Translations under genes and position numbers: made by a program
Shown: positions 4,969 through 44,346 of the stretch, in pieces
How positions within the stretch are numbered: the first letter of the stretch is position 1
Layout of the letters: every line of letters starts with the position of its first letter
Source of the DNA: Patescibacteria group bacterium
GTDB taxonomy: Bacteria > Patescibacteriota > Microgenomatia > UBA1400 > PJMF01
Length of the DNA: 59,895 bases
Assembly (NCBI GenBank): GCA_040879165.1
Contig: JBBDKV010000028.1
Location: forward strand, 1-59,895
Direction of reading: 5' to 3'
The notes under the pieces: generated by a model
What the model was told of the DNA's origin: nothing
The model's database searches: none
Seen by the model: only the letters and a program-made list of their open reading frames with translations

Positions 4969-6490
4969 TTTCTTGGTGAGCGGGAGTATCTTTTACCAAA
5001 ATTAGCACATAGTCATCAACGTAAATCGGTTCCCACGCTTCATCTCGAATTCGCCGAATCATAAACGCTTGCCCCCAATTTGTCATGTCGTGACGATAAA
5101 AATAAATAGCGCCAAGATCATAGCGCTGCACCATTGCCTCCCAGACGACTTCATCAGTTTGAGCAGCTATGTATTCGTTAATCATAAAGTCGCCAGGATA
5201 GGCTTCTGGTCGATTATCTACAAACACTCGTGTCTCGGGATATAAATCAAAGATCAAAAACCCGCCAATATCATAATTATTAAACAAATTGCCCTCGATT
5301 TCTAGGCTTTTGAAAAACGCGGCTGATTGTCTATTTGCGGGAAGTAGGCCGAGTCCGTATTGCATGCCGATGGGAGCAATATTTGCTGTAGTCAGCCAGC
5401 TAATTAGCACAGCTCCACCAATGACTGATCCTAGGCTAAGGCGAATCGTTTCTGGAATTTTTTGACGTGCCAGAGCCAGCCAATTTTTGATTTGCTGCCA
5501 CCCTCCACTGCCGATCCAAAACAGTGCCACCAGCGCGAAAATAGACTCGTAGCGGGTAATAAAAGCGGTGAGTAAGCTAAAAATGAGTACTAATAGATTG
5601 GGAAAAAGGTGCTTGGTTGATTTTTTGCGTCTCAGCAATGGCACCGCTGCCAAAAAATTAAACACCAAGACTGCTAATGTTAAATACACATAGTACGGGC
5701 GAGGGTGATATTGGAGGAAAAACCAGATGCTTTGATTCTCAGCTACTCGATAGGCATAGTTGTTAAAAATTTGCAGTGGAAAAAGGATGCCTTGTAGACC
5801 AACGGGATTGAGCAGACAAATACTAGCCGCCGCCAGGCCAATACCAACTAACTGACGCAGTCGTACCCAATCACGTTCTGCCAACAACTGAAAACCAGCC
5901 GCGCCAAGAATGACGCCGCCAAAGATAAAAAATATATGTGTGTTAACCCAGAAGAACATGGTTAGTACCCAGATTAGGGTAAATTTCCAGGGAAATGATG
6001 GCTGCGTTTTTGATCTCAGCCATCGCCAGGTTAATATCGTTAAGCCACTAAAAATAACCAGGCTAACTGCTTCAGGCCTGACTTCCGCTCGATGCGCCAG
6101 AATTGGCAGTAGTAGAAATAAACCACCAGATAGTGGCAAAAGTAGTTGGCGCTGAAATGCTCGCACTCCAAATACCATAATCAGCACCCCTGCCATAGAG
6201 AGTGCCATACCTGTTAGACTGAGCAGTTCAAAGCCACCCATTTGATAGACCAGAAATGCCAGTACACCAAAAAGCCAGTGATGATTAGGTACAGAAAATT
6301 CTGAGTTGGTAAATGAGTAAAAATTAGTTGAAAAAACGCTGCCAGATTGGAGAATCACTTGGCCGTTCATCAAGTGCCTGCCTAGATCACTGGCAGTGAA
6401 ATTGATGCGTTGCATATAGAGGGCAGCCAGCCAAAGACAGAGAAGGATTAGGATAGCCCATTGAAACCAACGCTGTTGCCAGATTTGCAT
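4919..6490 (-). CDS. Multi-pass membrane protein, probable GT-C fold glycosyltransferase
   Basis: About 11 TM segments, DLGRHL, RPE, WVNTH and FVDNRPE motifs, and a C-terminal soluble domain. TACTAT-6nt-ATG start. Confidence 0.6.
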   Translation of the reverse strand: MQIWQQRWFQWAILILLCLWLAALYMQRINFTASDLGRHLMNGQVILQSGSVFSTNFYSFTNSEFSVPNHHWLFGVLAFLVYQMGGFELLSLTGMALSMAGVLIMVFGVRAFQRQLLLPLSGGLFLLLPILAHRAEVRPEAVSLVIFSGLTILTWRWLRSKTQPSFPWKFTLIWVLTMFFWVNTHIFFIFGGVILGAAGFQLLAERDWVRLRQLVGIGLAAASICLLNPVGLQGILFPLQIFNNYAYRVAENQSIWFFLQYHPRPYYVYLTLAVLVFNFLAAVPLLRRKKSTKHLFPNLLVLIFSLLTAFITRYESIFALVALFWIGSGGWQQIKNWLALARQKIPETIRLSLGSVIGGAVLISWLTTANIAPIGMQYGLGLLPANRQSAAFFKSLEIEGNLFNNYDIGGFLIFDLYPETRVFVDNRPEAYPGDFMINEYIAAQTDEVVWEAMVQRYDLGAIYFYRHDMTNWGQAFMIRRIRDEAWEPIYVDDYVLILVKDTPAHQEIIEQYQLPAETFALPG

Positions 6491-6596
6491 ATATGTATAG
6501 TACTTGTCAGCGTGAGGTTGGGCAAGCGGCTAGCAGCACCGATGTATCCCGTTTTGTGAGAGATGTACGCTATTTTCGTGAGTGATAAATAACTGA

Positions 6597-6974
6597 CTAC
6601 TCTTTGAACTTGCCAGCTTTGCGTTCTTTAACTTTGTTCATTGAGTCCATCAGTCGCTCATGAAGATTGATTTTTTTGATGCGGGCCATGCGAAGGATGC
6701 TCATCAGAATGTCGCCCAATTCTTGTTCGACGGTTTCGTCAATTTGCGCGCGCAGGTTGGTTTTCTTACGACCGTGTTCGGCGAGGTATGCGCGCGCCAT
6801 CTCCCCAATCTCTTCAACCAGACCAAGAATCAACATTGAGCCAAATTCTCTTGAGTCACGCTTGCCTTTATCAACTTCATTGAGCATCTTAAAATACTCT
6901 TTGAATGGCGTGTCGTAATATTGCGCTCTTTTCTTTTGGGTTTTGTTTGTTTTTGCTGTGGATTTTTGAGGCAT
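6597..6974 (-). CDS. MazG-like nucleotide pyrophosphohydrolase
   Basis: LVEEIGEMA and ELGDILM acidic motifs of the all-alpha NTP-PPase fold. Confidence 0.8.
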   Translation of the reverse strand: MPQKSTAKTNKTQKKRAQYYDTPFKEYFKMLNEVDKGKRDSREFGSMLILGLVEEIGEMARAYLAEHGRKKTNLRAQIDETVEQELGDILMSILRMARIKKINLHERLMDSMNKVKERKAGKFKE

Positions 6975-7032
6975 AAGTATAGTATACAGTGTCTACGCAA
7001 GACTCGACAGCTTGACGTATACTAAAGGCAGT

Positions 7033-8829
7033 ATGTCACAGATTCAGCAAGTTAAGGACGCGCATAACATCGTCGATATCATCGGTAATCGATTGACGTT
7101 GCAGCGAGCAGGCTCTAATTTTAAGGGGTTGTGTCCGTTTCATAGTGAAAAAAGCCCTTCTTTTTTTGTCAGTGAAGAAATGCAGCGCTTCAGATGTTTT
7201 GGTTGTGGCGAAAGTGGTGATGTATACACCTTTTTAGAAAAATATGAAGGCATGACGTTTGCTGAGGCGTTGGAAACACTGGCTAAAGAGGCGGGTATCC
7301 AGCTGGAGCAGTTTGTGCCAGACAAGCAGGATGAGCTGCGGTCTGAGTTGCTGGCGGTGCTTGATTTGGCTCGAGAATATTATCATTGGTTGCTAACCAC
7401 CCATGCAGCTGGCAAGCCAGCTCGCGAATACCTCAAGGAGCGAAAAACAAGTCAAGAATCTATCAAACAATTTCAGATGGGCTTTGCCCTGACGCAGTGG
7501 GATGGTTTGATCAAATTTTTACATGGTAAGAAGAAGTATTCTCTAGAGGTGCTGGAGCAGGCTGGATTGGTCATCCGTTCTCGATCGGGACGAGTCTACG
7601 ATCGGTTTCGCGGTCGAGTGATGTTTCCGCTGCGTAATCATCGGGGACAAGTAGTTGGTTTTTCGGGTCGCCTGCTGCCTACTCTAGCTGAGGGTGATGA
7701 TGAGGGAGCGAAGTACATTAATTCTCCAGAAACGCTGGTCTATCACAAAAGTGAGCTGTTGTTTGGCTATAGTGAGCTACTGCAAGCGATTCGCAAGCAA
7801 TCTCGCGTGATTTTAGTCGAGGGTGAGTTTGACGTAATTTCATCTGCGCAGGCGCACGTTTCTCATGTAGCTGCCATTAAAGGTTCGGCATTGACACCGC
7901 AGCACGTTCGATTGCTTGGGAGAACGGTTGATGCAATTGTGTTGTGTCTCGATGCAGACAAGGCTGGTATTGCAGCCACCCAAAAAGCCATCGAAGTAGT
8001 CAACGCCGAGCAATTATCTAGAGAGCGACCGTTAGAATTGCGAGTACTGCGCATTCCAGGAGGGAAAGACCCTGATGATCTGGCCCGCAGCGATCCCAAA
8101 GCATGGCGAGAAGCAGCTAAGCACTCAATTTCCGCCTATGATTTTCTGATAGAAGTAGCTTTTGAACAGCATGATGCCAACTCGGCTTCTGGAAAACGCT
8201 CGATTATGCAGTTTGTAGCGCCGTGGCTGGCTAAAGTGCAGCACGCAGTGGAGCGCGAGCATTACGTGCAAACTCTGAGTAATCGTTTAGACGTGAGTGA
8301 ATCTAGTATCGAAAAGGATCTCAAAATTGCTGCTCGGCCAGAGCGACGAAAACGGCAATCAAAATCAGCAGATAGTGAGGAGCACACTAAGGAGCTCACT
8401 CGCCAAGAACAATTAGAGCGACGATTATGGTTCTTGGTATTGCACTCAAAGGGCGATCAATTTCTCCAACGCTTAGAAAAATTTTCAGAGCATGAGCTGA
8501 TTATGCCAGGTGCCCAAATGTTGCTGAAAGCACTGCAGTCCGCGCAAGCACACGATTGGCAGACAATAGCCCGCAATTTGCCTAAAGACCAGCAGGAATT
8601 AGTCTTTGAGTTGTATAGTGAGGAATCAGTGCTCGATCAAGACTACGAAGTGACGACAGCTGAGTGGCAACGTACCTTGACCCAGTTAAAGCAAGAAGTG
8701 ATACATGGTCAAATTCAGCAGATAAGTGATGCATTAGAAAAACTTGAGCAGAAAAAAGAATTGAGTGAGGAAGAACAAAATGAGCAAGATGAATTATTGA
8801 GAACGTTGGTTGCGTTGCGAAGGAAGTAA
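7033..8829 (+). CDS. dnaG: DNA primase
   Basis: Zinc finger CPFHSEKSPSF...CFGC, DRFRGRVMFP, KYINSPET, TOPRIM VEGEFD / DADKAG and KDPD. Confidence 0.97.
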   Translation: MSQIQQVKDAHNIVDIIGNRLTLQRAGSNFKGLCPFHSEKSPSFFVSEEMQRFRCFGCGESGDVYTFLEKYEGMTFAEALETLAKEAGIQLEQFVPDKQDELRSELLAVLDLAREYYHWLLTTHAAGKPAREYLKERKTSQESIKQFQMGFALTQWDGLIKFLHGKKKYSLEVLEQAGLVIRSRSGRVYDRFRGRVMFPLRNHRGQVVGFSGRLLPTLAEGDDEGAKYINSPETLVYHKSELLFGYSELLQAIRKQSRVILVEGEFDVISSAQAHVSHVAAIKGSALTPQHVRLLGRTVDAIVLCLDADKAGIAATQKAIEVVNAEQLSRERPLELRVLRIPGGKDPDDLARSDPKAWREAAKHSISAYDFLIEVAFEQHDANSASGKRSIMQFVAPWLAKVQHAVEREHYVQTLSNRLDVSESSIEKDLKIAARPERRKRQSKSADSEEHTKELTRQEQLERRLWFLVLHSKGDQFLQRLEKFSEHELIMPGAQMLLKALQSAQAHDWQTIARNLPKDQQELVFELYSEESVLDQDYEVTTAEWQRTLTQLKQEVIHGQIQQISDALEKLEQKKELSEEEQNEQDELLRTLVALRRK

Positions 8830-8879
8830 TTTTCTCAGCTTCTCTGGTTTCTGTATAGGACATTCTTTCCAAAGACTCC

Positions 8880-8909
8880 TTGACAATATACCCCCATAGG
8901 GTATATGCT
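8880..8909 (+). promoter_or_regulatory. Sigma70 promoter with a CsoR/RcnR-type operator in the spacer
   Basis: TTGACA 8880-8885 and TATGCT 8904-8909 (18-nt spacer). A perfect inverted repeat ATATACCC-ccata-GGGTATAT (8886-8906) has the C-tract/G-tract form of CsoR-family operators and lies directly upstream of the CsoR-family gene. Confidence 0.85.
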
Positions 8910-8918
8910 GTGATTCTA

Positions 8919-9218
8919 ATGTCAAAGCTTACTACCAACTGTACACCCGCTGATTCTCTCACCGCAAGTCCTAAAAAAGATGCCAAGAGCGATCCTATTG
9001 TGACGCGTCTGAATCGAGCGCAGGGTCAGCTAACTGGAGTGGTTGGGATGTATGAAGAGGGACGCAACTGCGTTGAGATCGTCCAGCAGATTTTGGCGGT
9101 TCGCAACGCACTTGGTAGCGCAGCTCGGGTGATGCTCAGCACTGAGGCAACTCGCTGTTCTCGAGAAAGAAAAGTGGAAGAACTCGATGCGGTGATCAAA
9201 GAGTTATTGCGAGCCTAG
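8919..9218 (+). CDS. CsoR/RcnR-family repressor, CstR-like (x-C-E-C fingerprint, no His)
   Basis: RLNRAQGQLTGVVGMYEEGRNC..QQILAVRNAL...EATRC. Confidence 0.88.
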   Translation: MSKLTTNCTPADSLTASPKKDAKSDPIVTRLNRAQGQLTGVVGMYEEGRNCVEIVQQILAVRNALGSAARVMLSTEATRCSRERKVEELDAVIKELLRA

Positions 9219-9258
9219 GTATCAAGTAGCGTAGTAAATACTTATAAAGGAGATATAT

Positions 9259-9597
9259 ATGGCAGATGCACAAGCAATCCACCTTAATCAGGATACTTTT
9301 CAGGCCACCATTGATGAGGCTGGAGAAAAACCGGTATTTGTAGACTTCTATGCAGATTGGTGTGGTCCATGTCAAATGGCTGCTCCAGTTGTTGAGGAAT
9401 TAGCTGGCGATTACGCAGACAAGGCTGTTATTGCGAAGGTCAACGTTGACGAAAACCAAGAATTGGCGCAGCAATACCAAGTGGTCAGTATTCCAACAGC
9501 GGTTATTATCAAAAATGGTGAACCGGTGGATCGGATGACTGGCTTCTCTGGCAAAGACGGCTTTACAAAGTTGATTGACAAGGCTCTTGAAGCGTAG
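9259..9597 (+). CDS. trxA: Thioredoxin
   Basis: FYADWCGPC active site; SD AAAGGAG. Confidence 0.96.
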   Translation: MADAQAIHLNQDTFQATIDEAGEKPVFVDFYADWCGPCQMAAPVVEELAGDYADKAVIAKVNVDENQELAQQYQVVSIPTAVIIKNGEPVDRMTGFSGKDGFTKLIDKALEA

Positions 9598-38763: not shown

Positions 38764-39210
38764 ATGACAGCCATAACAAATAATCTCAGAATTGCATTGC
38801 TGAAACAAATTTGAAACGAAGAAATCTCTGCACTGAATGAACTTTTAGATAAAGGCACTGCATGGGATGTAGAGCAAGGTGAGGCGTTTCTCACCAATAA
38901 TGACAACGCACTTTTTGGTGCCTATATGAATAACAAGCTGGTCGGTTTTTTAACTGCTCATCGTTTACAAAGATTTGATACAAGAAAAGCAGAGGTATTA
39001 TTATATGAAATTGGTGTTTTACCAAAATATCAAAAACGTGGTATTGGTAAAGCATTACTGGCAGAGTTAAAAAAGTGGGCTAAAGAGGTTGGTGCTGATG
39101 AGATTTGGGTGCTCACCGCTCAATCAAATAAGGCTGCGATAGCTCTCTATACCGCTTCTGGCGGTAGTGTGGAAAGTAACAACGAACAATTGTTTGTTTT
39201 TAAAATTTAG
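38764..39210 (+). pseudogene. GNAT acetyltransferase interrupted by an in-frame TGA at codon 17 (38812-38814)
   Basis: TATACT-6nt-ATG at 38764 is in frame with the 38926 ORF (54 codons upstream, only stop is this TGA). The GNAT motif YEIGVLPKYQKRGIG is intact. Confidence 0.78.
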
Positions 39211-40987: not shown

Positions 40988-42544
40988 TCAAACCAACAAC
41001 CTCTTTAACTCATGTGTTATTGCATCTTCACTTTGCAATCCGTGGCTTTTTTGAATCAGCAATTGTGAAACGGTTTCAAATTGTGCCTCTAGTATTTCAA
41101 CTGTCATAATGTGCGCTCGGTGTCTTGATCGACTTCGAATCCATTTTTGGATGAGATCTACTTCGGCACTTGATCTACTCCCACGGCGAACGAAAATATG
41201 CCATTCTTGACCGATCAAAGTCATTCCGGCCAGTAACGAAGACACGTCTTCTGACATATCCTCAGTCAATGCCTGCACAGTTCTTTGATGCATTCCTCTT
41301 GCATCAGGCAAATTATCTACATACCACCTGCAGCCTTCCTTGATGCTTGCGATTTCTTCGAAAGTTAAAATACTGTCTTGAATCAGGATGGTATTGGGTA
41401 CATCCAATGACTGACTGAGTTTTGTATCAGCATAACCCAGGCGAGTTAATACTTCTTGAGCTTTTTCTATAACCGCTTCAACAGTTTGTGCTGCATCAAC
41501 AGCGCAATGTTGCTTTTGCTCCTCTGGACAGTGTGCGCAATCATCATCAAACTCCAAGCCTTTAGGGCTAATCCAATGTGTAAATCGATCCGATGTAGGT
41601 GTTTTATAATGGTCAGTCATAATATGTGAAATAGCGCAGCTAGTATGATTGTGAACGATCGCAGGAATCTCCAACTCTTCGGCTCGTTCCCGAACAATTT
41701 CTTTATACTGACCTTTCATCACTTTTGCTGGAGAGTAAATCTGATCGCTATATGATTCGTCTAAAGGATATCCAGCTTGTTCGAAGGCGTCTAATGTAAA
41801 TTCTTCAAACACAAACAAGCCACCAACAATAATTGTGTCAGCGTACGGTGCCACTTGTTGTAGAACAGTATCGATGTTTTCACGAGAGTCATTAATACCC
41901 TTGATCATTGGACGCATTGATACGATGACGGGGATGCCAGCTTCTTTAAGTCTTTGTATTGTGCTCAGTCTTACCTTGCTACTTGAGCTTTCAATTGCAG
42001 TGGGCATATTTGTGTAGGTGACGATGCCAATCAGTCGAGCACCCGCAGCTTGGGCATTTTGTAAAGCAATGATTTCATGAGGTTTGATGCCCATTTTAGT
42101 GATAAAGCTGATAGCTGCTCTATGATTTTGCTCTGTTGTTAAGCGCGTTGCCAATTCTGCAGTTGCTAGCCAATCGTTGCCTGGATCGTTGAAATTTTCA
42201 AGAATAACTGGTGATTCTGGAGTATACAGCGGCCATTTTTTAAGCTCAGCAAGTAGGTTATCTACAGTTATATATTTTTCTAAGTCTGATCCAATGTAGG
42301 ATCGAGTATTAATTGACAATCCTCCATCAACCATCCCAGATAAGTAAGGAGCATTTTTTTCTCCATCAACTGTGTCCATTGCTATCTGGTTACAATAAAT
42401 GCAACCCACGGCGCAACCTGGACCAAGTGTTCCTGGCTCAACGGCTCCGGTCTTCTGCCAAAGTTGAGTGGGCTTGAGTTCTTGATTGTTAGGGTGTGCA
42501 TTCCAAGAATCTGGGGGATGTAGTGAAATTTCTGTTACTGCCAT
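40988..42544 (-). CDS. Radical SAM protein, SplB/spore-photoproduct-lyase-like, with a Cys-rich tail and C-terminal extension
   Basis: CAVGCIYC motif, NDP, ITK, RLSTIQRLKEAGIPVIVSMRPMIKGIND, and extra cysteines TSC..CAHC..QHC. Confidence 0.85.
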   Translation of the reverse strand: MAVTEISLHPPDSWNAHPNNQELKPTQLWQKTGAVEPGTLGPGCAVGCIYCNQIAMDTVDGEKNAPYLSGMVDGGLSINTRSYIGSDLEKYITVDNLLAELKKWPLYTPESPVILENFNDPGNDWLATAELATRLTTEQNHRAAISFITKMGIKPHEIIALQNAQAAGARLIGIVTYTNMPTAIESSSSKVRLSTIQRLKEAGIPVIVSMRPMIKGINDSRENIDTVLQQVAPYADTIIVGGLFVFEEFTLDAFEQAGYPLDESYSDQIYSPAKVMKGQYKEIVRERAEELEIPAIVHNHTSCAISHIMTDHYKTPTSDRFTHWISPKGLEFDDDCAHCPEEQKQHCAVDAAQTVEAVIEKAQEVLTRLGYADTKLSQSLDVPNTILIQDSILTFEEIASIKEGCRWYVDNLPDARGMHQRTVQALTEDMSEDVSSLLAGMTLIGQEWHIFVRRGSRSSAEVDLIQKWIRSRSRHRAHIMTVEILEAQFETVSQLLIQKSHGLQSEDAITHELKRLLV

Positions 42545-42636
42545 GAGCAAAAGTTCAATTTCAGTATGTATACCTAAGGAATTAGTGTCTGATATTTATG
42601 TATATAATGTGTATTATTGTACCATATTGCAGAATA

Positions 42637-43329
42637 TCAAACTTTGATACCTGTTTTATTTAATGCCACAGTTATTATTTGTGCGCAAGTATCGCTAACA
42701 TGTGTATTATTATGCACGACATATGGTCGCAGAGTGTTCTTATTTATTTTCCAAAATGCGTACTCATCAGCAATTCTCTGTTTAAAATTTGGCCTTAAAC
42801 GGGTTAGCCATTCTTCTTTTGATCCAGCTCGTTCTTTAGCACGTTCATATAATGTACTTAGGTGGGAAACACCAAGAAAAATAGGTACGATGATGTGTGA
42901 AGGGAGCATCCCGTCGCTTGAAAGAAGAGAAGTAATTTCAAGCAGTCTATTAGGGCTCACTTTCCAAACTATGTGTTCATTATTGCGCTGAGGAATCATT
43001 TGTTCAATACTAGTCCCTACTAGCACTGTAGTATTTGTGCCCTGAGTATACTCGATATATTCAATCAATGCCTCTTGAGCAATTTTTTCACGAAATAACA
43101 CAGTGTCAAGATAATCATAGTCTGGGTTATCGGCTTCTTCCAACCTTGGCTTTTTAGTACTGTAATTACGAATTGCCCTAAAGTTCAATCCGCGTTTTGG
43201 ACCCTCTAAAGGCAGTGATTTAATGACAGTGTCCTTACCAACTGCAGTAGGTCCCGATACTACAAGTAATTTGCTTCCTGATTCCTGTAATTTTTCTACA
43301 TTGGAGTTAAATATTTCGTAGTTGAACAT
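42637..43329 (-). CDS. Guanylate-kinase-like P-loop NMP kinase (divergent)
   Basis: SGPTAVGKDT P-loop and YSTKKPRLEE..PDYDY, resembling the GMK TTRxPRxGE..DY motif. Confidence 0.8.
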   Translation of the reverse strand: MFNYEIFNSNVEKLQESGSKLLVVSGPTAVGKDTVIKSLPLEGPKRGLNFRAIRNYSTKKPRLEEADNPDYDYLDTVLFREKIAQEALIEYIEYTQGTNTTVLVGTSIEQMIPQRNNEHIVWKVSPNRLLEITSLLSSDGMLPSHIIVPIFLGVSHLSTLYERAKERAGSKEEWLTRLRPNFKQRIADEYAFWKINKNTLRPYVVHNNTHVSDTCAQIITVALNKTGIKV

Positions 43330-43342
43330 ATGAATGTCATTT

Positions 43343-43768
43343 TCAAACTAGTTTGAATGTTGCAATTGCAAGAGTAACAAGTGGAAATGATTGGATCTTA
43401 GCCATGTCTTTGAGTTCAAACCATCGGATGTCATTAGCATCTGGGTCTTGAGTTATGTTTAAGTCAGCTGACTGAGATGTTGCAATAAGGAACAAATGAA
43501 ACAGAGTCATTTGATCATTGAAGTCAGAATTCGGCACTTCTACTGTTTTGTGCGCAATATGCGTGAATGACTTCAAAGTAAGCTCCTCTTCTAACTCGCG
43601 AGCAATCGTCTCACTAGGCAACTCTCCTTCTTCTACAGCACCTCCTGGCAGGTGCCATCTATTATGTTTATGGGGTTTTTCTGGTTGCTGCCTTCTTGTT
43701 AGTAAAATCTGAGATTTACCTTCTTGGTCAAGAATTACGGCGACTGCAGCTTGAAGAGATTCTGGCAT
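43343..43768 (-). CDS. NUDIX hydrolase
   Basis: Complete Nudix box GAVEEGELPSETIARELEEEL (G-x5-E-x7-REUxEE). Confidence 0.93.
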   Translation of the reverse strand: MPESLQAAVAVILDQEGKSQILLTRRQQPEKPHKHNRWHLPGGAVEEGELPSETIARELEEELTLKSFTHIAHKTVEVPNSDFNDQMTLFHLFLIATSQSADLNITQDPDANDIRWFELKDMAKIQSFPLVTLAIATFKLV

Positions 43769-43842: not shown

Positions 43843-44346
43843 TTGACTTTTATTCACCATTTGGCATTAGATTTTTGCAGTGGAGGAATTATTGAAGAAT
43901 TATCACATTTATTGCGCTTACCTACAAAGTCTACAATGCTTTCTTATCAAGGATATACGATTGTTGGGGGTGTAAGAATTGTTGAAAATTATCCATTAAC
44001 TTTCGATCAACTACTGGAAAGACTAGCGGTATTGGGTACGAGACATGTTCGTATTGCTGGTGAGCGAAAAAAGATCTTTAGCAAAATAGCGCTAACTTCA
44101 GGGAAGGGGTTTATGAGTGAGTTTTTTGATCAATTAAAACCAGAGGTGTATATTGCGGGAGAGTTTGAGCAGGAAGCTACTAAGTACGCAGAAGATTTGG
44201 GAATACTGTTAGTCGAACTCTCACATCATGGGAGTGAGGTAGCGCCTTTGAAAAAGATTAGTAAAAAATTGTCAAAAGTATTCGCTGTACCTGTCTGTGA
44301 TATTGAAATTGATGATACTATAGAAACTGTTTTTTTAAATGACTAA
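43843..44346 (+). pseudogene. C-terminal part of a NIF3-like (GTP cyclohydrolase I type 2) protein
   Basis: HHLALD, IALTSGKG, VYIAGE and ELSHHGSE. The N-terminal region is missing, with an in-frame TAA just upstream. Confidence 0.65.

Follow-up and report, generated by a model that had tools for sequence, protein, structure and literature searches.

Radical S-adenosylmethionine (SAM) enzymes that act on free nucleotides, such as viperin, MoaA, QueE and OxsB, have each been a source of new chemistry and of novel antiviral or antibiotic compounds. In prokaryotic viperins (pVips) the radical SAM gene is linked to a nucleoside monophosphate (NMP) kinase of the CMP/UMP type, and a non-canonical nucleotide is the expected output. 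Here we describe a locus of related design on a 59,895-nucleotide stretch of DNA from a Patescibacteria group bacterium (assembly GCA_040879165.1, contig JBBDKV010000028.1, positions 1 to 59,895; this whole stretch is called the window in the following). It comprises the genes for a Nudix hydrolase, a diverged NMP kinase of the guanylate-kinase fold and a radical SAM enzyme (Table 1). We propose, with middling confidence, that the trio works as a cassette for modification at the nucleotide level, with a radical SAM enzyme of a new type at its centre; such a previously undescribed three-gene pathway would probably alter a purine nucleotide chemically.

Nucleotide modification by a set of three activities is familiar from phages. 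The set of phage T4 consists of the dCTPase gp56, the dCMP hydroxymethylase gp42 and the dNMP kinase gp1, and that of Z-genomes of MazZ, PurZ and the host guanylate kinase (GMK). By analogy, the trio would fill the same three roles, namely an NTP pyrophosphatase, an enzyme that alters the monophosphate and a kinase able to use the altered form. In contrast to both sets, the modifier here is a radical SAM enzyme, and the cassette is cellular, with no member found in phage or viral collections.

The locus also departs from the closest radical SAM systems. It shares with the pVips the genetic link to an NMP kinase and the expected kind of product, whereas the radical SAM protein has no sequence or profile similarity to viperin, carries a second four-cysteine site and a KH/BON-like tail, and is accompanied by a kinase of the guanylate-kinase fold and frequently by a Nudix partner. 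With the SplB/COG1533 branch (PA0069, Rv2578c), which includes the DNA-repair enzyme spore photoproduct lyase (SPL), it has the CxxxCxxC core in common, but its partners are nucleotide enzymes and not DNA-repair proteins.

Linkage of the radical SAM gene to nucleotide enzymes

Loci were collected by exact-protein look-ups, a scan of 185,579 species genomes and a metagenome scan, and the open reading frames (ORFs) of all loci were scored with profiles of the window kinase and Nudix protein, with Pfam and with NCBIfam. About 20 independent loci remained after removal of duplicates (designated by L numbers). Hosts named by the genome scan are Daviesbacteria of the candidate phyla radiation (CPR), Acidobacteriaceae and two Gammaproteobacteria, including Pseudomonadales.

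A nucleotide kinase is encoded in 13 of the about 20 loci, in 11 of them within three genes of the radical SAM gene and in two more within the same co-directional run. The partner is guanylate-kinase-like in the window, L001, L002, L003/L018, L005, L012, L017, L019, L021 and L022; an AAA_28 P-loop protein takes its place in L010 and L030, and L031 has an adenylate-kinase-type partner. Nucleotide phosphohydrolases from one of four families occur in eight or nine of the loci. Nudix proteins were found in eight (the window, L001 with two copies, L002, L005, L009, L012, L013 and L025), and the orthologues of L001, L002, L005, L009, L013 and L025 are neighbours of the radical SAM gene; the other phosphohydrolases are a HAD nucleotidase-like protein (L007), a His_Phos_1 protein (L012) and a YfbR-like HD_3 protein (L013).

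The order of the genes is not fixed. Nudix, kinase and radical SAM genes follow one another in the window and L001, whereas in L002 the kinase gene is divergent and followed by the Nudix and radical SAM genes. Radical SAM and kinase genes are convergent in L003/L018, L017 and L019 and divergent in L022; in L005 and L021 the radical SAM gene precedes the kinase gene, and in L005 the Nudix gene comes next. The seven-gene run of L012 encodes, in this order, the radical SAM enzyme, His_Phos_1, an unknown protein, an isochorismatase, the kinase, a second unknown protein and Nudix. On the radical SAM tree, the link to a kinase appears in at least four deep branches.

As a yardstick for chance, a single-copy gene such as gmk is expected to fall no more than three genes away from a randomly chosen gene in far fewer than 1% of cases. 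Measured against this, the kinase link in 11 to 13 of 20 loci, the shuffled order and the non-homologous replacement of the kinase are strong evidence that the trio is a conserved functional unit and not a chance neighbourhood. The first-pass annotation of the window had named linkage of homologous trios across phyla as a test, and homologues do stay linked. Since the kinase or phosphohydrolase beside the radical SAM gene comes from one family in some loci and from another elsewhere, a free nucleotide is suggested as the substrate or product of the enzyme, and the data indicate that nucleotide phosphorylation and dephosphorylation belong to the pathway.

In L005 the trio lies directly behind a bona fide purA (468 bits, cutoff 402) with purB nearby, a neighbourhood that fits a purine nucleotide. 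A Z-base pathway at this locus was considered and rejected: the adjacent gene encodes a normal PurA that scores just 105 bits on the PurZ model, which sets L005 apart from the Z-genome set.

The radical SAM family

Only 28 homologues of the radical SAM protein came out of 5.8 billion protein clusters in a word-indexed search, and when 1.84 billion representatives were searched exhaustively with HMMER, 27 clusters were obtained at E<1e-30. Past these 27 clusters the score dropped from 175 to 111 bits and below, first to fragments and then, at about 65 bits, to proteins of about 350 residues that are themselves weakly PA0069-like. A set of 27 clusters followed by such a drop points to a small, sharply delimited and uncurated family. 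With Pfam, the protein classes named in the first-pass annotation were recovered for all three proteins of the trio (PF00293 Nudix, PF00625 Guanylate_kin and Radical_SAM), the last at 24.9 bits, which is under the gathering score. We found no Pfam, NCBIfam or PADLOC model specific to the family, and neither the single protein (phmmer) nor the family profile detected a PDB relative by sequence at E<=1.

The only curated COG1533 families to match, NF033668 (PA0069) and NF038135 (Rv2578c), gave 25.9 and 30.1 bits, far under their cutoffs of 360 and 430, and both matches are confined to residues 147-293. Together with the weak resemblance of the nearest outgroup proteins to PA0069, this suggests that the family is only remotely related to the COG1533 proteins, from which it differs further by a beta-rich insert, the second cysteine site and a C-terminal domain of about 170 residues. 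Identity with SPL was rejected, as no NCBIfam SPL model (TIGR00620) matched at E<=0.01, no PDB match was obtained by sequence at E<=1 and SPL is absent from the best 50 Foldseek matches in the PDB. Viperin was likewise discarded, with no viperin match in NCBIfam or PADLOC. The first-pass annotation had called the enzyme SplB-like and not viperin-like. Its exclusion of viperin stands, and the protein is not a bona fide photoproduct lyase, which would have counted against its reading; the likeness to SplB does not hold beyond the weak COG1533 scores. The family does possess the CxxxCxxC motif of SplB, but this motif is superfamily-wide and hence not diagnostic.

An alignment of 24 family members (alignment A1) was used to assess motif invariance. 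The CxxxCxxC cysteines and those of the TSC, CAHC and QHC motifs, all noted at first sight of the sequence, are present and invariant in the 24 homologues (Table 1), and the latter make up a second four-cysteine site that is a candidate for an auxiliary Fe-S cluster or a Zn site. The beta-rich insert directly after the cluster motif is conserved as well (G75, N79 and R81). Further invariant motifs are ENFNDPG, FITKMGI, TYxxMPxxIE, SMRP and GGLFV, and, towards the C terminus, NLP, W448 and W-x-R-S-R-x-R-x-R.

An AlphaFold2 model calculated on alignment A1 reached a predicted local distance difference test (pLDDT) of 88 and a predicted template modelling score (pTM) of 0.88. When this model was compared with the PDB by Foldseek, the whole protein retrieved generic radical SAM barrels at low template modelling (TM) scores, with Elp3 first and BioB, NifB, LipA and lysine aminomutase among the others; a viral structure library gave generic matches only. 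The C-terminal 169 residues modelled alone reached a pLDDT of 96. Their best Foldseek matches are the tandem KH domains of archaeal CPSF, NusA and NusA2 (probability 0.99-1.0, TM about 0.35), and they also resemble BON and secretion-ring-building modules; no Pfam family matched the domain. What had been described as an unexplained extension of about 100 residues is thus a conserved, folded two-module domain of about 170. Its basic helix would be well suited to bind nucleic acid or polyphosphate.

A variant of 683 residues, with about 170 extra C-terminal residues that match no Pfam family, is encoded in L008 (2321-4372; also L014-L016). It stands alone beside an insertion sequence (IS) element (rve), and the identical protein occurs on contigs from three samples.

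The kinase and the Nudix hydrolase

The window kinase matches PF00625 with 33.6 bits and has the P-loop GPTAVGKD, but with 52 bits against a cutoff of 160 it fails the guanylate-kinase equivalog TIGR03263. A canonical GMK used as control scored 203 bits on this model, CPR-type stand-alone genes adjoining guaA 108-126 bits and the radical SAM-linked kinases 52-82 bits; the window kinase is the lowest of all, the other linked kinases reaching 60-82 bits. Three of its GMP-contact positions are altered: STKKPR stands in place of TTRxPR (Arg to Lys), the Tyr of YGT is Val and the Asp of ID.QG is Ser. Alignment thus confirms the first two substitutions as originally noticed and adds the third. The second Arg (KKPR) and the Glu of LIEY are retained. 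Because of the three altered contacts, the protein is not a plain GMK, in line with the earlier suspicion; most plausibly it still handles a guanine-like or purine monophosphate. Among the radical SAM-linked kinases as a group, the P-loop GPTAxGKD and the lid arginines are invariant, and most keep the GMK signature TTRxxRxxExxGxDYxF and YYG.

In a tree of 124 kinases, a set of 46 members separates from 78 canonical GMKs with 99% support. The linked kinases fall into this set together with the CPR-type genes and are significantly clustered; the pair formed by the window and L001 kinases sits on a very long branch.

The stand-alone guanylate-kinase-like genes next to guaA on the CPR contigs L026 and L027 deserve mention in their own right. 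Genes of this type carry labels such as 'hypothetical protein' in one case and 'AAA family ATPase' in another, and as they fall under the TIGR03263 cutoff, the housekeeping GMK of these lineages may be missed by standard annotation.

The Nudix protein, described earlier as intact, is a clear superfamily member (PF00293, 77.6 bits, cutoff 21.1). Its Nudix box, G-AVEEG-E-LPSETIA-RELEEELT, is complete except that the final Gly of the GX5EX7REUXEEXGU consensus is replaced by Thr. It remains below the MutT equivalog TIGR00586 (8-oxo-dGTP diphosphatase) with 50.9 bits against a cutoff of 97.9, has weak RppH-type matches in NCBIfam too, and matches the PADLOC-DB 2.0 candidate model PDC-S07 at 1.9e-15.

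Gene layout and genomic settings

The ORF map agrees with the first description of three co-oriented minus-strand genes separated by 13 nt (Nudix to kinase) and 92 nt (kinase to radical SAM). A TTG codon at 42550, six bases upstream of the ATG of the radical SAM gene, is also open and would give a protein of 520 residues. Within the 92-nt spacer, a sigma-70-like hexamer pair (TTGATA-16-AATAAT, 42640-42613, minus strand) was recognized by consensus match only; by virtue of it, the radical SAM gene may also have a promoter of its own. The trio sequence was found in DNA metagenome runs only, with no RNA runs among the matches.

Table 1. Coordinates of the cassette, of conserved elements of the radical SAM protein and of the related plasmid operon
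Feature	Position	Strand	Remarks
Nudix hydrolase gene	43343..43768	-	141 residues; first gene of the trio; MutT-like, under every equivalog cutoff
Diverged NMP kinase gene, guanylate-kinase fold	42637..43329	-	230 residues
Kinase/radical SAM spacer	42545..42636	-	92 nt
Radical SAM gene	40988..42544	-	518 residues from ATG; rare unclassified family
Predicted [4Fe-4S]/SAM-binding motif C44-x3-C48-x2-C51 (GPGCAVGCIYCNQ)	42392..42415	-	Invariant in 24 sequences
Candidate second metal site: C303 (HTSCA), H323-W324, C336-x2-C339-x7-C347	41504..41638	-	All four Cys and H323/W324 invariant
C-terminal domain, residues 350-518	40991..41497	-	Two alpha/beta KH/BON-like modules (model); invariant basic helix W-x-R-S-R-x-R-x-R
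Sister operon, S. meliloti pSymA (L033)	5629-9416		Also in L034, L035 and L036

Two ORFs near the trio appear incomplete. Divergent from the Nudix gene and separated from it by 75 bp, a NIF3/DUF34 ORF (43843-44346, plus strand, 167 residues) matches only profile positions 98-251 of 256, so that it is either truncated or a variant with a short N terminus; the absent part would not fit into these 75 bp. On the other side, a GNAT ORF (38926-39210, plus strand, 94 residues) spans profile positions 41-113 of 116 and is probably the remnant of a 5'-truncated acetyltransferase.

Elsewhere, the settings of the family vary. In L003 and L018 (contigs of 896 kb and 10 kb) the radical SAM and kinase genes lie inside a type IV secretion gene set encoding a coupling protein and VirB4-like, TraC-like and PrgI-like proteins, with a tyrosine integrase in the vicinity; the whole may represent an integrative conjugative element from a CPR bacterium. 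In L011 the radical SAM gene is immediately preceded by a tRNA-Arg(UCU)-like gene (about 5740-5815, recognized by eye), which separates it from uvrB, a layout typical of an island inserted at a tRNA. Co-regulation with SOS/uvr genes was set aside, given this intervening tRNA gene in L011 and no convincing LexA box by eye in L012. A second radical SAM gene is found directly 3' of the family member in two distant loci, L029 (2691-3695) and L031 (3444-4427); the proteins, of about 330 residues, have an RlmN/Cfr-like CIMCATG motif and a C-terminal GxCGTL and are 44% identical to each other. We also discarded a conserved methyltransferase partner, as the copies in L002, L010, L030, L031 and the window are generically similar only, except for the L010/L030 pair, and a hidden kinase in L009, where the 217-residue gene upstream of Nudix showed no similarity.

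A plasmid-borne sister family

A tblastn search of plasmids detected a radical SAM protein of 377 residues on S. meliloti pSymA. Its alignment to the family profile spans 303 columns (hhalign 99.2%), the HTSC..HW..CxxCx7C site included, but the protein contains neither the beta insert nor the C-terminal domain. This sister family is present on 27 plasmids from six or more genera, with hosts among the Rhizobiales (Rhizobium), Labrenzia/Roseibium, Gluconobacter, Streptomyces, Nocardia and Nostoc.

In the sister operon (Table 1) the radical SAM gene is followed by genes for a 3'-5' exonuclease, a P-loop ATPase of about 195 residues and an HD protein or aldo/keto reductase; the ATPase gene is always downstream of the radical SAM gene, and in Streptomyces thymidylate-synthase and NDP-kinase genes precede the operon. 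Profile comparison (hhalign 80%, E 1e-5) relates the P-loop partner to the AAA_28 proteins of L010 and L030; it also has the DR..D motif of deoxynucleoside/thymidylate-type kinases. A radical SAM enzyme accompanied by a small kinase-like P-loop protein is thus an older arrangement than the family studied here. The two families thus have in common the radical SAM core with the HTSC..HW..CxxCx7C site and a linked P-loop kinase-like protein; the sister differs by its exonuclease partner and by its location on plasmids, in defence-island or mobilome surroundings. On pSymA its operon directly adjoins an operon of the cyclic oligonucleotide-based antiphage signalling system (CBASS) and a TcmP/DUF5131 pair, and on Nostoc and Gluconobacter plasmids toxin-antitoxin genes. 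The sister operon is itself a candidate defence or nucleotide-modification system.

Discussion

The anatomy of the three genes, the rarity of the radical SAM family, its conserved motifs and its linkage to kinases and phosphohydrolases are the observations on which our model of a nucleotide-modifying cassette builds. From them we infer the order of the steps, a purine substrate and the nature and use of the product. The MutT-like Nudix hydrolase would convert a (d)NTP, most likely that of guanine or another purine, into the monophosphate. The CxxxCxxC cluster of the radical SAM enzyme would then cleave SAM, and with the help of the second four-cysteine metal site the nucleotide would undergo a radical transformation. 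Finally, the diverged kinase with its remodelled NMP pocket would re-phosphorylate the altered monophosphate and pass it into the di- and triphosphate pool. The product might serve as an antiviral or anti-competitor analogue, as a precursor of modified nucleic acid or as a nucleoside metabolite.

Several points weigh against this model. Five to seven family members are without such partners: neither a kinase nor a hydrolase lies near the radical SAM gene in L008, L011, L028 and L029, and L007, L009 and L013 lack a kinase there. Methyltransferases, a PhyH dioxygenase, an amidohydrolase or the second RlmN/Cfr-like radical SAM enzyme are encoded at some loci, so that the pathway may differ between clades. 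The KH/BON-like tail with its basic helix would be a better fit to a nucleic-acid substrate than to a free nucleotide, the step order and the guanine assignment are drawn from family membership only, and literature searches on this gene combination returned nothing relevant.

A role in antiphage or anti-plasmid defence, which we regard as rather unlikely, would be a special case of the cassette: the radical SAM enzyme would produce an analogue that is toxic or terminates chains, the kinase would feed or activate it, and the Nudix hydrolase would keep self-poisoning in check. Radical SAM enzyme plus NMP kinase is the viperin arrangement, and a kinase lies within three genes in 12% of bacterial viperins (bioRxiv 10.1101/2023.09.13.557418). 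The rare, patchy, cross-phylum distribution of the family would suit such a role, as would its mobile contexts (the type IV secretion element with integrase in L003/L018, IS elements in L008 and L013, the tRNA-adjacent position in L011) and the PDC-S07 match of the Nudix protein. Yet PADLOC-DB 2.0 recognizes neither the radical SAM enzyme nor the kinase, none of its systems is matched by the trio in all components, and a generic Nudix protein would match PDC-S07 anyway. The surroundings include housekeeping genes (purA/purB in L005, AspRS in L010 and L030, GcpE in L028), and no defence neighbour is consistent across the loci. A phage or plasmid origin was rejected, with no family member in IMG/VR, INPHARED phages or PLSDB plasmids and only the distant sister on plasmids.

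The first-pass annotation took the trio to make or remodel a non-canonical nucleotide and, from Fic and AbiE genes nearby, favoured defence. That the genes form a unit and that a free nucleotide is involved agrees with the swapping of kinases and hydrolases; the defence purpose is not borne out by the PADLOC results, the viral collections or the mixed neighbourhoods. The Fic gene (about 6 kb from the trio; 1.3 kb in L002) and AbiEii are real, but at 5-7 kb, with five unrelated genes in between (unknown, APH, the GNAT fragment, unknown, TspO), they add little to the case. The best hint of defence comes only from the sister family beside CBASS and TcmP/DUF5131 on pSymA; toxin-antitoxin genes adjoin it on the Nostoc and Gluconobacter plasmids. 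A more specific version, a non-viperin route to a radical-modified guanine (purine) analogue that acts as antiviral or anti-competitor chain terminator or antimetabolite, strikes us as doubtful; in it the GMK offshoot would activate the analogue, the Nudix hydrolase would protect the producer and the KH-like tail would tie synthesis to a cue from nucleic acid.

Repair or modification of nucleic acid is an unlikely alternative that takes the tail as its starting point: the KH-like domain would bind RNA or single-stranded DNA, the radical SAM enzyme would repair or modify a base, and the Nudix hydrolase and kinase would process 5' ends or sanitise released damaged nucleotides. The tandem KH domains of CPSF and NusA as best matches of the C-terminal domain and its invariant Arg-rich helix argue for it, but the TM score is only 0.35, BON and secretion-ring modules match too, and Pfam detects no KH domain. 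Remote kinship to the branch of SPL, the tRNA modifier Elp3 as best whole-protein fold match, the RlmN/Cfr-like partner in L029 and L031, the 3'-5' exonuclease of the sister operon and the weak RppH-type matches of the Nudix protein point in the same direction, as do repair genes nearby (HhH-GPD in L001, DNA_alkylation in L005, uvrA in L012), whereas the adjacency to uvrB in L011 is broken by the tRNA gene and looks incidental. Against it stand the partners, which belong to the classic enzymes acting on nucleotides as small molecules: the NMP-binding motif is preserved in the guanylate-kinase fold, and the adenylate kinase, HAD nucleotidase and YfbR-like HD protein that occur elsewhere are not polynucleotide kinases.

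That a CPR housekeeping GMK and a MutT-type sanitiser merely lie next to an unrelated radical SAM gene is very improbable: the linked kinases are phylogenetically closest to the CPR-type stand-alone genes by guaA, but the linkage recurs with rearranged order in at least four deep branches and several phyla, the gammaproteobacterial linked kinase sits within the cassette, kinases of other families substitute, and the window kinase has lost three GMP contacts and scores 52 bits against 108-126 for the stand-alone genes.

For the nucleotide-modifying cassette that we favour, the gene partners make the substrate class testable, as purine mono-, di- and triphosphates can be offered to three small soluble proteins. 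Extreme rarity despite a spread across phyla, a second metal site that sets it apart and a tail domain of its own make the radical SAM family unusual. Were the outcome positive, one more nucleotide modification would become known, and perhaps also a new strategy of immunity or antimetabolite action. If the model is true, it would also provide a foothold on the plasmid-borne sister system beside CBASS, and it would explain why genome-reduced, salvage-dependent CPR bacteria retain the cassette.

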